DNA of 64,000 nt. Origin: Sphyrna mokarran (lineage: Eukaryota). This document shows, piece by piece, positions 31,693 to 36,662 of the stretch (the stretch's first letter is position 1; every line of letters starts with the position of its first letter). The stretch lies in assembly GCA_024679065.1 (NCBI GenBank), contig JAGIQG010000013.1, forward strand, positions 25,916,001 through 25,980,000, written 5' to 3'. The translations under genes were made by a program, and so were the position numbers. The notes beneath the pieces are model-generated. The model searched no databases, had not been told where the DNA came from, and worked only from the letters and a program-made list of their open reading frames with translations.

Positions 31693-33442
31693 GTGAGTGC
31701 GGTATTTGTTACCAGGACAACTAGGGAAAAGAATGTGTTTAGATCCAGAGATTATCTGTCCATTTAATGTTACAATAACTTCCCTGCAGTATCTTACACC
31801 AGGCCTGCCTTGAAAATAAAAAATATGAAATGTTGGATGTATTCGGCAAGCCAGGCAGCATTGGAGTTATTTTTTCAGGTCTAACATTAACTCTGTTTAT
31901 CTTCCCACAGGTGCTGCCTGACCTGTTGAGCATTTCCATCGTTTCCTGGTTATATCTCAGATTTTCAGCATCCATAGCATTTTACTTTTGTATTACTGCT
32001 TACTTCCAATAGGAAAAGCGGATCACCCCTTGGTTTTGCTTATTTTAAAGCGTGCCACATGATTTTCTTTTGAAAGCATTCTGCTCTCAAATCAAAAGTT
32101 GCAAGAAATGCTGATATAGTTGATTTGTTTAAGAGAAATATTGGAAATTCAAATGCAAAATTATATTATTTACTATATCCTGGGCATAAATATTGCTGAT
32201 AAAGTAATTGTTCTACTTGGAGTACCAGTGTTTGAAAGACACTGTATAAAATGCAAATTCTTTCTATTAAAAATAGTTTCACATGAGGCTCAAAGGGCCA
32301 AATGTACTCCTCCTCCTCCTATCTTTCATGTTTCTATGAAATGTCTGCCTGTCTTCTATGTCTAGTGACATATCTCCTATCTTTAAAATACATTTCTCAA
32401 AACCCTTTTGACATGGCCCTAAAGAAAATGCAGCACTTTCCACAATATCACCTTTGGCACTTTGACTTTCAGTGACATTTTTAGTTCTTTCCTGCTCAGT
32501 ATGATTAGAACTATCTATTCACAATGGGGAGTGAATGCAGAAGACACCACAATCATTTAGACCAGACAGTGTGGTCCAGTAAATCTTATCCTGTTGATCA
32601 TTTGTTGTGTGTTCATTACATAAAACAGATAATAGCAAACAGTCAGTTTGGATTTACACTTGGAACTCTGAGGTGACACACTGCATCATTCAATCCAGCC
32701 ATGTGCTAGCAATTGATTGTGAAAATTCATTATTTTTTCTACAAGGCATTCTTTGGATTTTTAAGAATTTTGTTTTTAATCATTGCTCCTGTGATTTTGT
32801 GCTCATTAGTATTTGACTATTCATATGTTGAAGTCGCCCAAAACAGCATCTCTGTAAGTAGTGCAGCCTGCCATTGGTCTTGTGATTCTTTACTGTGCTG
32901 GACCAGAACTTCAAGAATTTGTCAATTATCTCAAAACAATGTTATCACTCCTGAAAATGTTCCATACTTTAAGTCTTTAAGCAACACAGCACGGGAAACA
33001 GGCCCTTCGGCCCAACGAGCCCGCGCCGCCGTCATACTATATAGTAGCAAATACATTATCCTATTTTAATATTCCTATATAATAGTATATATATTATTCC
33101 TAATATGGAAAATTTTCACCATAGGGACAATTTGTTTCCCAATCAGCCTAAGAGCGAATTTTTGGGTTGTGGGAGGAAACCGGAGTGCCCGGAGAAAACC
33201 CACGCAACCACGGGGAGAACGCGCAAACTCCCGCAGACACCGGCCCAATTCCAAGTGTCTGCACAGCCACATCGATAGTCTCTGAGCTGTCATGGTGCCC
33301 TTCAGATGGTCCACATAAAGCACTCATTTACGACATGAGGTACCAGGCAACCCATGAATCAACATCCAAGAGCTGTACCCGCACCACCTGCCGAATGCGT
33401 GCTCAAATTATGGACCGAATTACCTGTGGAAAAAAGCCGTAG

Positions 33443-36349
33443 TTAAACAGTCCTAATATATCCCTCTATCTGCATACCGCTCATGTGGCTGTCCAAGAGA
33501 CCCTTAAACAGCCCCAGCGTGCCTGCTCCCACCACCTTACTCGGCAGTGCATTCCACACCCCCACTACCCTTTGTGTGAAAAACTGCCCTCTAATATTCG
33601 TCCTATACATAGCCCCCCTCACCCTATGGCCATGACCCCTCGTCCTATCCATTTCTAAAGGTGGAAAAAGTTTACCTCCATTTACTCTATCTATACCCCT
33701 TATAATCTTATACACCTCTATGAGATCCCCTCTAAGCCGACGTCTTTCAAGGGAAAACAACCCCAGTCTATCTAATCGTTCCTCATAAGACAGTCCTTCC
33801 ATACCAGGCAGCATCCTGGTAAACCTCCTCTGCACTCTCTCCAAGGACTCCACATCCTTCCGATAGTACGGAGACCAGAACTGGGCGCAGTATTCCAAGT
33901 GAGGCCTAACCAAAGTTGTATACAACTGCAACATCAAACTCCTACTCTTATATTCTATACCCTTTTCTATGAAAGCTAACATACTATACGCCTTCTTTGT
34001 CACCTTCTCCACCTGTGAGGACACCTTCAGAGACTTGTGAACCTGCACCCCCAAGTCTCTCTGCGTCTCTATGCTCCGTATAGTTTTACCTTTTATCCTA
34101 TAATTCTCTTCTACATTTTTCCGGCCAAAATGCATCACCTCGCATTTTTCCGGATTAAATTCCATTTGCCATCTATCTGCCCAGTCTACCAACCTGTCTA
34201 TGTCCTGTTGTATTGCCTGACACTGCTCTTCTGTACCCGCCAATCCAAGCATCTTGGTGTCATCAGCAAATTTGCTGATCTCACCACCTACCCCTACTTC
34301 CAAGTCGTTTATGTAGACCACAAATAGAAGAGGACCTAGTACTGAGCCTTGTGGCACTCCACTAGTGACAGGCTTCCAGCCGGAAAAAGAGCCTTCCACT
34401 ACTACCCTCTGTCTCCTCCTCCCGAGCCAGTTCTCGACCCATCTACATACCCGACCCTGTATCCCATGCGCCTTCACCTTCTCTATCAGTCTACCATGAG
34501 GAACCTTGTCAAACGCCTTACTGAAATCCATGTAGACGACATCAACAGCATGTCCTTCATCAACTGTTTTTGTCACTTCTTCAAAAAATTCCACTAGATT
34601 TGTAAGACAAGACTTCCCCTTGACGAAGCCATGCTGCGTATCCCTGATCAGATCGCAGCGCTCCAGATGCTCATACATCCTGTCCCTAAGGATCCTCTCC
34701 ATTAGCTTACCTATAACTGAAGTCAAGCTCACCGGCCTATAGTTCCCTGGGTGATCCCTCTGACCTTTTTTAAACAACCGTACTACGTTTGCTATCCTCC
34801 AGTCCTCTGGGACCTCACCTGTGTCCAAGGAAGAGACAAAGATTTGCGTCAGAGGCCCAGCCAAGTCTTCCCTCAACTCCCTTAGCAGCCTGGGGTAAAT
34901 GCCATCAGGCCCCGGAGCTTTATATGTCTTTAAGCTGCCTAACAGCCCCAACACCTCTTTCCTCGTAATCCTTATTTCCCTCAACCGATCCTCAACTTTG
35001 TCAACATCAGGCACAGACATCTGTCCAGTCTCCTGCGTGAATACCGACGCAAAGTATTCATTCAGGATCTCCCCCATTCCCTCAGGCTCTAAGCATAGAT
35101 CCCCTCCTCTGTCCCTAAGAGGTCCAATCTTGCCTCTAACCATCCTTTTGCTCCTTACATAGGTGTAAAATGCCTTTGGATTTTCCTTTATCCTACCTGC
35201 CAGAGCCACCTCGTGGCCCCTTTTTGCCTTTCTAATACCCCTTTTAAGATCCCGTCTACACTCTCTATAAGCTTCCAGCGCTGTCTCAGTCCCTAGTTGC
35301 CTAGATCTAATGTAAGCCTCTTTCTTTTTCTTGATCAAGTCCTCAATCTCCCTGGTAAGCCAAGGTTCTCTAATCCTACCTTTCCCATCCTTCCTCCTTG
35401 CCGGCACGTATCTTTCCTGCAGAGAGTTTAGTTTTCCCTTGAAAGACTCCCACATGTACCTCGTCGACCTGCCCTCAAAAAGCTTATTCCAGTCGGTATC
35501 TTTAAGATCTTGCCTAATCTGGCCGTATCTAGCCCTCCCCCAGTTAAATACCCTCCCTTTTAGGCCAGTCTCGTCCTTTTCCATTAATATCCTAAAGCAG
35601 ACAGAGTTGTGATCACTATTTGACACCTGCTCTCCTACCTCGACGTCAACCACCTGGCCTGGCTCATTCCCCAGAACCAAATCCAGTATAGCCCCCTCTC
35701 TAGTCGGGCCATCCACATACTGCTCCAAGGACCCTTCCAAAACACACTGTACAAATTCCTCCCCATCCACTCCTACAGCCCTGGGCACACTCCAATCTAC
35801 TCCAGGAAAATTGAAATCTCCCACTACTACCACCCTATTTTTCCTACACTTATCTAAAATGTCCCTGCATATCCCTTCTTCCGCAGCCTGCGGGCTGTTG
35901 GGCGGTCTGTAGTAAACACCCAACAGTGTAACCACTCCCTTCCTATTCCTCAACTCCACCCATAGAGACTCAATTCCTAAATCATCCATACCTCCCTCCC
36001 TCTGCACTGCTATGACGTTGTCCTTAACTAATAAAGCCACTCCCCCGCCTCTCTTCACACCAACTCTGTCACACCTAAAACACTTATACCCTGGAATATT
36101 CAATTGCCAGTCTTGCCCCTCCTTCAACCACGTCTCGGTCACCGCCACCACGTCTAAACTCCTCGTGAACATTATTGCCTTCAGTTCATCTGTTTTGCTA
36201 GTCACACTCCTCGCATTAAAACACGTGCACTGAAGACCCTCAGCTCTCGGATATTCCTTTCTACCTACTGGTGTTACCCTATCATCCCTCTCTCTCCCAC
36301 TCCCAGTTCCCGTTGTCTCCCCACCCTCCCTCCCTATTAGTTTAAACAT
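33443..36349 (-). CDS. CR1 ORF2, APE endonuclease + reverse transcriptase, intact (968 aa)
   Basis: EN motifs FNARS, VTETW, GVYYRPP, GDFN, LDLVL, SDHN; RT motifs [44 protein letters not shown]; no internal stop. Confidence 0.95.
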   Translation of the reverse strand: MFKLIGREGGETTGTGSGRERDDRVTPVGRKEYPRAEGLQCTCFNARSVTSKTDELKAIMFTRSLDVVAVTETWLKEGQDWQLNIPGYKCFRCDRVGVKRGGGVALLVKDNVIAVQREGGMDDLGIESLWVELRNRKGVVTLLGVYYRPPNSPQAAEEGICRDILDKCRKNRVVVVGDFNFPGVDWSVPRAVGVDGEEFVQCVLEGSLEQYVDGPTREGAILDLVLGNEPGQVVDVEVGEQVSNSDHNSVCFRILMEKDETGLKGRVFNWGRARYGQIRQDLKDTDWNKLFEGRSTRYMWESFKGKLNSLQERYVPARRKDGKGRIREPWLTREIEDLIKKKKEAYIRSRQLGTETALEAYRECRRDLKRGIRKAKRGHEVALAGRIKENPKAFYTYVRSKRMVRGKIGPLRDRGGDLCLEPEGMGEILNEYFASVFTQETGQMSVPDVDKVEDRLREIRITRKEVLGLLGSLKTYKAPGPDGIYPRLLRELREDLAGPLTQIFVSSLDTGEVPEDWRIANVVRLFKKGQRDHPGNYRPVSLTSVIGKLMERILRDRMYEHLERCDLIRDTQHGFVKGKSCLTNLVEFFEEVTKTVDEGHAVDVVYMDFSKAFDKVPHGRLIEKVKAHGIQGRVCRWVENWLGRRRQRVVVEGSFSGWKPVTSGVPQGSVLGPLLFVVYINDLEVGVGGEISKFADDTKMLGLAGTEEQCQAIQQDIDRLVDWADRWQMEFNPEKCEVMHFGRKNVEENYRIKGKTIRSIETQRDLGVQVHKSLKVSSQVEKVTKKAYSMLAFIEKGIEYKSRSLMLQLYTTLVRPHLEYCAQFWSPYYRKDVESLERVQRRFTRMLPGMEGLSYEERLDRLGLFSLERRRLRGDLIEVYKIIRGIDRVNGGKLFPPLEMDRTRGHGHRVRGAMYRTNIRGQFFTQRVVGVWNALPSKVVGAGTLGLFKGLLDSHMSGMQIEGYIRTV

Positions 36350-36508
36350 TTCTGAAACACTCCAGCTAACCTCCCAGCTAAAATATGTGTTCCCCTCCCA
36401 GTCAACTGCTCCCTATCCCTCGTGAATAGGTGACCCTCCCTCCTGAAGACTTCCCAATGATCAATAAATATGAAGCCTTCTGCCCTACACCAATCCCTCA
36501 TCCATGCA
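36337..36508 (-). pseudogene. CR1 ORF1 C-terminal remnant (SGNH esterase-like)
   Basis: WMRDWCRAEGFIFIDHW...LTGRGTHILAGRL...LN* resembles the CR1 ORF1 esterase tail; cut by the 5' truncation. Confidence 0.8.
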
Positions 36509-36662
36509 TCCATACTTAGCAATTTTGGTAATAATTCTGAGGAATGAGTAGGAGCCGAAGAATAATTACTTAATTAAGTAACCATTTTGTAATTCCTTTA
36601 CAGATACAGTTTGTATTTTTAAATCATCCTTCAACTTGTTATTAATCTGTTTGTTGTTTCAG

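Follow-up and report, generated by a model that had tools for sequence, protein, structure and literature searches.

CR1 elements are the dominant retrotransposon group of most vertebrates (PMC13343379). It has long been asked how long interspersed nuclear elements (LINEs) translate their second gene, and reinitiation is what the cases studied so far, L1 and SART1, point to. Here we analyzed the junction between open reading frames (ORFs) 1 and 2 of a CR1-clade LINE of Sphyrna mokarran, found in a stretch of 64,000 nucleotides (nt) of assembly GCA_024679065.1 (contig JAGIQG010000013.1, positions 25,916,001 to 25,980,000), hereafter called the window. Judged from sequence comparison, ORF2 of this LINE is likely reached by −1 ribosomal frameshifting at the slippery heptamer U_UUA_AAC.

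A 2016 review counts both U_UUA_AAC and G_GGA_AAC among the four listed heptamers that are most prone to shifting; infectious bronchitis virus uses U_UUA_AAC, and equine arteritis virus uses G_UU(A) (PMC5009743). The same review describes natural quadruplex-stimulated frameshifting as “not currently known but anticipated” (PMC5009743). Synthetic (G3U)4 reporters gave up to about 7% −1 shifting with spacers of 6–8 nt and were active at 5 nt (PMC3919603). A signal of the viral type is known, and what appears to be new is its place at the CR1 ORF1/ORF2 junction. We found no description of frameshifting at this junction in the literature, where an early remark in subscription journals is possible. 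The main text of a 2026 CR1 survey (PMC13343379) contains no “frameshift,” “overlap,” or “start codon,” the first 400 letters per cell of its supplement contain no “frameshift,” and the accessible part of a chicken report has no “frameshift” in a CR1 context.

The junction in the window and in family A

On its minus strand, from 36509 to about 32977, the window carries a 5′-truncated LINE copy that belongs to a young family (family A). With a query of 321 bases across the junction, the 2.77-Gb genome yielded 1,564 candidates, of which 40 were scored; these were 99–100% identical. The features of the junction and of ORF2 are listed by window position.

36337..36509, minus strand: 3′ remnant of ORF1, the last 56 codons of an SGNH-esterase-type ORF1 protein (ORF1p), ending C-L-N-stop; 36509 is the 5′ truncation point
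36347..36349, minus strand: overlapping in-frame AUG in the ORF2 frame; ATG here, the minority state in family A
36340..36346, minus strand: slippery heptamer U_UUA_AAC (TTTAAAC), in X_XXY_YYZ phase with ORF1 (TGT TTA AAC TAA)
36337..36339, minus strand: ORF1 stop directly 3′ of the heptamer, TAA here
36319..36334, minus strand: canonical G3 quadruplex motif with 1-nt loops, GGGAGGGAGGGTGGGG, the candidate 3′ stimulator
36277..36311, minus strand: five further G3 tracts, starting at 36311, 36304, 36298, 36288, and 36279
36311-36286, minus strand: second predicted quadruplex
36218..36346, minus strand: AUG-independent N-terminal extension in the ORF2 frame, spanning 43 codons between the heptamer and the N of NARS
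36224..36226, minus strand: site of the second in-frame AUG of family A, ACG in the window copy, inside the first conserved endonuclease block
33443..36346, minus strand: intact ORF2 (endonuclease and reverse transcriptase), 967 codons from the TTT of the heptamer, 968 amino acids from the ATG

Rereading of the minus strand bore out the initial annotation, in which the AUG (at 36349), the heptamer (36346-36340), and the quadruplex motif (36334-36319) were all placed correctly. As it had claimed, the heptamer is in phase, the −1 frame is the intact 968-amino-acid ORF2, and the canonical G3 motif lies five nt downstream (spacer 36339-36335) with five more G3 tracts behind it. The 3′ part of this motif reaches into the stretches (+11 to +15, +18 to +20) that are rich in G in other families too. 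Along the linker (36218..36346), the −1 frame has no stops, while the other two frames have 3 and 4. In both strands of the window there are 25 TTTAAAC sites and 11 G3L1-7 motifs, which gives a rough chance of about 0.01 for one such heptamer-quadruplex pairing (25 × 5 start positions × 11 / 128,000), before phase, stop, and an open −1 frame are required.

ORF2 matches PF03372 (endonuclease) at residues 44–246 and PF00078 (reverse transcriptase) at 527–747. An endonuclease profile search matched the L1 and TRAS1 endonuclease structures, and a single-sequence PDB search gave no matches. The element is classed as a CR1-clade LINE from its ORF1 type and the likeness of its junction; family A shares its end motif with published CR1 consensus rows (PMC13343379). 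The junction signal is a property of the family, and the window copy cannot use it alone because only the last 56 ORF1 codons are kept.

Twenty family A regions were fetched full-length; 19 gave the junction, and five had both ORFs open with more than 900 ORF2 codons. In the 3.8 kb of coding sequence of a full copy there are only two G3L1-7 motifs, at +6 and +29 after the heptamer. The full ORF1p of family A (P0001, read from sister copies) has 300 amino acids, with a Cys/His N-terminus and an SGNH-esterase-like C-terminal domain. It matches PF13472/PF17182 (Lipase_GDSL_2/OSK) below the Pfam curated cut-off, and it has 42 homologs, most with PF13472, the nearest named relatives being from rays and sharks. 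The esterase motifs are lost at residues 186–197 (HIGQKD vs. HIGTND in relatives) and 268–280 (REQLT vs. DGLHL), and this ORF1p is probably catalytically dead although the family is highly active.

Conservation of the junction across CR1 families

Other CR1 families in the genome were sampled without using the heptamer, by a degenerate NARS pattern (6,778 matches, the first 30 taken as loci), by protein searches with the ORF1 tails of four relatives, and through 20 chosen regions. Own-genome searches found nothing with P0079 at E 1e-40 and one old copy with the P0011 tail at 1e-33. Three further young families (B, C, and D) were recovered. Their ORF1 proteins are 42–46% identical to that of A; identity is 50–52% between C and B or D, and 70% between B and D. 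ORF1 ends in TTA AAC plus a stop in all four families. The residue before L-N is C in A, A in B, T in C, and G in D, and the stop is TAA in A, TGA in B and D, and TAG in C. It is also TAG in L172, a more distant locus considered below. Linkers have 43 codons in A, 47 in B, 54 in C, 48 in D, and 72 in L172; they are barely alignable beyond the first 9 codons and are stop-free in the −1 frame only.

Phase was counted in the 118 junctions found in 141 loci. NARS of ORF2 is in the −1 frame in 54/57 A copies, 25/27 C copies, and 20/33 B/D copies. In intact copies of B, C, and D the −1 frame closes 2–8 codons upstream of the heptamer, and there is no in-frame AUG before the endonuclease in these families: the first Met in the ORF2 frame is at codon 85 (B), 85 (C), and 179 (D), inside the endonuclease, with NARS at 48, 55, and 49. 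We also anchored 135 non-A loci on the esterase tail minus its last three residues, and 124 could be placed. TTTAAAC stands exactly at the predicted spot in 94 of these 124 copies and GTTAAAC in 5. Old copies included, [T/G]TTAAAY plus a stop is found no more than 3 nt from its expected place in 105 of the 124 (38 clusters at 85%). The initial annotation had suggested aligning family copies and other vertebrate CR1s, and across the families compared here the heptamer, its phase, and the stop are kept and the AUG is not.

Codon use can separate conservation of a nucleotide signal from conservation of a protein end. Synonymous sites among A–D are, by this measure, near saturation because only 13 of 78 conserved ORF1 columns (other than M and W) share the same codon in all four families, against which the constant TTA AAC stands out. 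Other L-N pairs in the ORFs of five lineages are TTA AAC in 0/18 cases, and family C uses TTA for 2/94 other leucines. For an x-L-N end, codon use within each family gives T-TTA-AAC a chance of 0.2–1.6%, and these values are not simply multiplied because the families are related. The heptamer is kept as nucleotide letters, beyond what the protein needs.

More distant relatives were compared through their protein ends. A profile search among 50%-identity representatives gave 6,091 matches, and the best 150 were taken; 87 have the DGxH motif, 83 of these have a tail of 20–45 residues, and 67 tails are distinct. Asparagine is the last residue in 41 of these 67 tails from the best 150 of 6,091 (background 6.3%). 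The 41 end in L-N (28), Q-G-N (8), or otherwise (5), at 24–39 residues from DGxH. The residue before L-N has a codon unable to end in U in 1/28 tails, compared with 10/28 one and two places up; judged by tail composition, the deficit has P 0.04. In 19 of the 28 L-N tails (vertebrate CR1s), the spacing between DGxH and L-N is a constant 26 residues. Named members of this group are from swallow, snake, and poison frog (3 of the 10 looked up carried names), and bird, reptile, and amphibian junctions are represented by protein ends and 400-letter consensus rows only.

A Q-G-N protein end predicts the heptamer G_GGA_AAC. This heptamer was found in L172, the sole recovered locus spanning a Q-G-N junction (of 3 loci in a second metagenome scan), which reads CAG GGA AAC TAG and has a 685-codon endonuclease-reverse transcriptase frame in −1; its ORF1 is 30–35% identical to those of A–D. 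A metagenome scan with a shark/ray ORF1 alignment found no relatives among 149 candidates, and viral-contig scans found 0/7 and 0/112. A motif search of the PMC13343379 supplement gave 23 matches, 22 of which were inspected by eye; 17 are at an ORF1 end and 5 elsewhere. The 17 rows are CR1 or Crack consensus, with labels read as alligator, crocodile, coelacanth, bowfin, bullfrog, chimaera, sharks, and rays; found via the motif itself in 400 letters per cell, they speak to breadth and presence, not to frequency or phase. In the part of the PMC4316615 supplement that was searched, all 4 motif matches are in ORF2 3′ ends.

The layout is established: an in-phase heptamer, an adjacent ORF1 stop, ORF2 open in −1, and a 3′ G-rich tract, kept across families. 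In the mechanism we propose, most ribosomes would stop and release the 300-amino-acid ORF1p, and a few per cent would slip back by one nt in tandem, while UUA occupies the P site and AAC the A site, and read on as ..K-C-L-N-L-I-G-R.. The predicted fusion (300 + 965 = 1,265 amino acids) would join zinc finger, coiled coil, and esterase to endonuclease and reverse transcriptase. Slippage would set a high ratio of ORF1p to ORF2 protein (ORF2p) and tie the reverse transcriptase to the ORF1p particle. More tentatively, the pause may come from the G-rich tract, as a three-tier quadruplex in A and a two-tier quadruplex or protein-bound G-tract in the others; slow termination at the neighboring stop would probably contribute.

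Start codons, the G-rich tract, and other routes to ORF2

Reinitiation at the overlapping AUG at 36349, which the initial annotation gave as its alternative, is disfavored by the comparison. Exact 35-base patterns searched over the whole genome found ATG in 210 copies of family A and GTG in 608 (n = 818). G is the main letter at the first position of this AUG (place 1871) in all four RNA runs compared, and GUG copies make up 2/5 of the doubly open full-length copies (2 of the 4 GUG copies read full-length). A conserved AUG at the ORF1 stop, as in SART1, is absent in those 608 copies and in B, C, and D. From its distribution, the overlapping AUG of family A is dispensable. Reinitiation after termination at the ORF1 stop could draw on any of several nearby codons (the overlapping AUG or GUG, the AUG ahead of NARS, or, like that of L1, a non-AUG codon), and each would yield a separate ORF2p. 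Such a protein is the rule in the LINEs studied (PMC3708506), and reinitiation is described for L1, without an AUG, and for SART1, with a coupled stop and start (PMC5009743, PMC3708506). CR1 junctions offer sites for it in the overlapping in-frame AUG of 210 family A copies, an in-frame AUG near the ORF1 end of L172, and a CUG in the ORF2 frame that overlaps the stop in B and D; the G-rich tract could help to hold the ribosome, as downstream structure does in SART1. Reinitiation leaves unexplained the fixed TTA AAC, the preceding U, the swap to G_GGA_AAC, and the constant −1 phase, and B, C, and D would have to manage it with no AUG ahead of the endonuclease. We consider this route unlikely, and the comparison favors −1 frameshifting over it.

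Several observations weigh against frameshifting or narrow its reach. Family A has usable AUGs, and taken alone it would be compatible with reinitiation. In 57/59 family A copies, another in-frame AUG stands three codons ahead of the N of NARS (outside the 57, one copy has GTG and one is unreadable; the window copy has ACG). It coincides with the V/F residue of the C-[VMF]-[YC]-[FT]-N block and is more likely an internal Met than a start because it comes one codon after a Cys that is invariant in 5/5 lineages, and reinitiation there would lose this Cys. That argument rests on the invariant Cys, the first strand being unaligned in the two alignments shown by the endonuclease profile search. In L172, one in-frame AUG precedes the heptamer by three codons, and two more lie close to where the endonuclease begins. 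The ORF2p of mammalian L1 is produced unfused and does not depend on its AUG (PMC5009743), so lack of an AUG alone proves nothing, and we found no precedent for an N-terminal fusion of 300 amino acids on an endonuclease. The motif is absent in 19/124 anchored copies, and phase in old copies is scrambled by indels, hence their omission from the phase counts. Thirteen of the 33 B/D copies are out of −1 phase, and their G-runs vary in length, with insertion or assembly errors at G-runs the likely cause. A subfamily of B with 217 exact copies carries G_UUA_AAC, which has a non-canonical first triplet. Among the distant tails, 26/67 have no terminal N; such lineages may reach ORF2 in a different way, and they would show at which points the frameshift was gained or lost. 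Independent comparisons are few, about four, with B and D close kin and the 8 Q-G-N tails possibly one clade. In reporters, more than five G3 repeats lowered shifting (PMC3919603). As a separate observation on the G_UUA_AAC subfamily (L184-L186, L062-L090), several of its copies are on very small contigs.

RNA quadruplexes are candidate stimulators of frameshifting, and the initial annotation had proposed that one acts here. The frameshift part of that proposal is supported by the cross-family layout, and the canonical four-tract G3 motif lies within 32 nt of the heptamer in 55/57 A copies. It does so in only 3/33 B/D and 0/27 C copies, and it is absent after the L172 heptamer. The G-rich tract is kept in position, and by these motif counts the canonical quadruplex is specific to family A. 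Over the 38 clusters, G content is 68–92% at +11 to +15, 74–87% at +18 to +20, and about 20–50% further on. The G4Hunter score of the 20-nt window starting at +4 to +12 is the top of the coding region in A, B, and D (0/128 blocks elsewhere reach it) and near the top in C (1/129) and L172 (3/101). In B, C, and D, ViennaRNA predicts two-tier quadruplexes at +7 to +20; for L172 it predicts no quadruplex. No shared Watson-Crick hairpin or pseudoknot was found in the 70 nt downstream in the five lineages compared, and the downstream fold of family A without a quadruplex is −3.0 kcal/mol. These patterns argue for a selected G-tract and not for its folding as a quadruplex, and we place the chance that a quadruplex stimulates the −1 shift slightly below even.

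If frameshifting occurs, it is an even question whether the stimulator is something other than a quadruplex: the G-tract at +11 to +20 may be bound by a protein, either ORF1p or a host G-tract binder, or the pause may come from the stop next to the heptamer. Such a stimulator would suit the rarity of the canonical motif outside A (3/60 copies), the lack of a predicted quadruplex in L172, the closeness of the G peaks to the 12–15 nt tied to trans-acting factors (PMC5009743), and the stop directly 3′ of the heptamer in all families. It sits less well with the +6 motif of family A, which has 1-nt loops, is of the most stable quadruplex type, and stands at a distance that works in reporters, or with the two-tier predictions in B, C, and D and the G2x4 motif in 45/60 non-A copies. 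We regard it as highly improbable that there is no recoding signal at all, with L-N kept for the protein and the G-tract a product of a G-rich sense strand and a Gly-rich linker. The sense strand is strongly G-skewed, Gly codons do fall on the tract, and the fixed spacing of L-N in 19/28 tails could be a protein feature. Such a reading would have to accommodate codons conserved against saturated synonymous sites, a terminal N at variable distance with G-N as an alternative, a tract that is the top G4Hunter window of the coding region, and ORF2s in B, C, and D left without any start. An RNA-level route, by splicing, a shorter transcript, or base-adding polymerase slippage, likewise has very little probability. 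The 5′ untranslated regions (UTRs) contain splice-donor-like and pyrimidine-rich words, and the long G-runs of B and D vary in length among copies. Set against these, an RNA-library contig spans the junction gap-free (1843-2285, 22 other letters), GT..AG ends occur at 0/9 of the joints listed, A and C have no long homopolymer, and the DNA itself already has an open −1 frame. The RNA contigs are weak evidence, coming from related organisms, possibly containing DNA, and with 4–26% of sampled words present.

Long-range pairings were considered as conserved stimulators and rejected. Pairing of the B/D G-tract with a C-rich module of the 5′ UTR (−39.9 and −33.1 kcal/mol) shows no covariation; the G-tracts of A, C, and D pair better with the module of B than with their own UTR, and the module is partly lost in one B copy and absent in A. 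Pairing with the family A 3′ UTR (−26.7 kcal/mol) is not common to family C. The C-rich module itself (L184, L185, L189, L192) lies about 60–230 nt before the ORF1 start and is complementary to the B junction G-tract over about 16 nt, without covariation. It suggests 5′-UTR exchange between families because it is common to B, D, and one C copy (L189).

Beyond ORF2, the family A copy continues into its 3′ UTR.

32977..33442, minus strand: family A 3′ UTR, about 470 nt, common to 4/4 other copies fetched

The middle of this UTR appears to resemble the conserved central domain of V-SINEs (short interspersed nuclear elements), and family A is possibly a LINE that captured a SINE module. In the one 3′ end of family C that was read, the UTR is short and lacks this middle part. 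Just upstream of the young copy, the window also holds older, broken CR1 3′-end fragments of other families (38500-37900 and 37300-36950, minus strand).

Comparison with known recoding systems

Nidoviruses and retroviruses share with CR1 the same in-phase heptamers, a structural gene upstream, a polymerase gene in −1, and a candidate stimulator at least 5 nt downstream (PMC5009743). Unlike these viruses, CR1 is a retrotransposon of the non-long terminal repeat (non-LTR) type without a conserved hairpin or pseudoknot, and its candidate stimulator is a G-rich tract. It also differs in that no protease to cut the fusion is among the CR1 Pfam matches. If −1 frameshifting is confirmed, CR1 would use the retroviral Gag-Pol solution, annotated CR1 ORF2 proteins would lack their true N-terminus, and the esterase would be tethered to endonuclease and reverse transcriptase.

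Among APE-type non-LTR elements, a review states that Dictyostelium TRE5-A and TRE3-A need a −1 frameshift for ORF2 (PMC5911963). Both elements differ from CR1 in clade and in ORF1. Human L1 and silkworm SART1, like CR1, have a bicistronic LINE RNA with ORF2 downstream of the ORF1 stop. They differ in using unconventional or UAAUG-coupled reinitiation, as described in PMC5009743 and PMC3708506, with a separate ORF2p. The CR1-clade LINEs described in PMC13343379 resemble family A in having an esterase-type ORF1 and an ORF2 with APE and reverse transcriptase.

The broadest form of our proposal is that the CR1 clade, from sharks to birds and more distant animals, makes a Gag-Pol-like fusion by an ancient quadruplex-stimulated −1 frameshift, the first natural essential case and one present in thousands of genomic copies. 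We advance it tentatively, with the balance somewhat against it. The cassette offers natural variants, with three stops, three heptamers, and canonical and non-canonical G-tracts, and the G_UUA_AAC and U_UUA_AAC subfamilies of B are a natural pair for comparing shift efficiency. The CR1 junction may include the natural case of quadruplex-stimulated −1 shifting that has been sought. Synthetic (G3U)4 reporters (PMC3919603) and the HDAC1 shifting described at codon repeats (PMC12809536) resemble family A in having G3 tracts with 1-nt loops 3′ of the shift site. The former is a synthetic −1 event and the latter a +1 event, whereas the CR1 case would be natural, −1, and needed for an essential gene.

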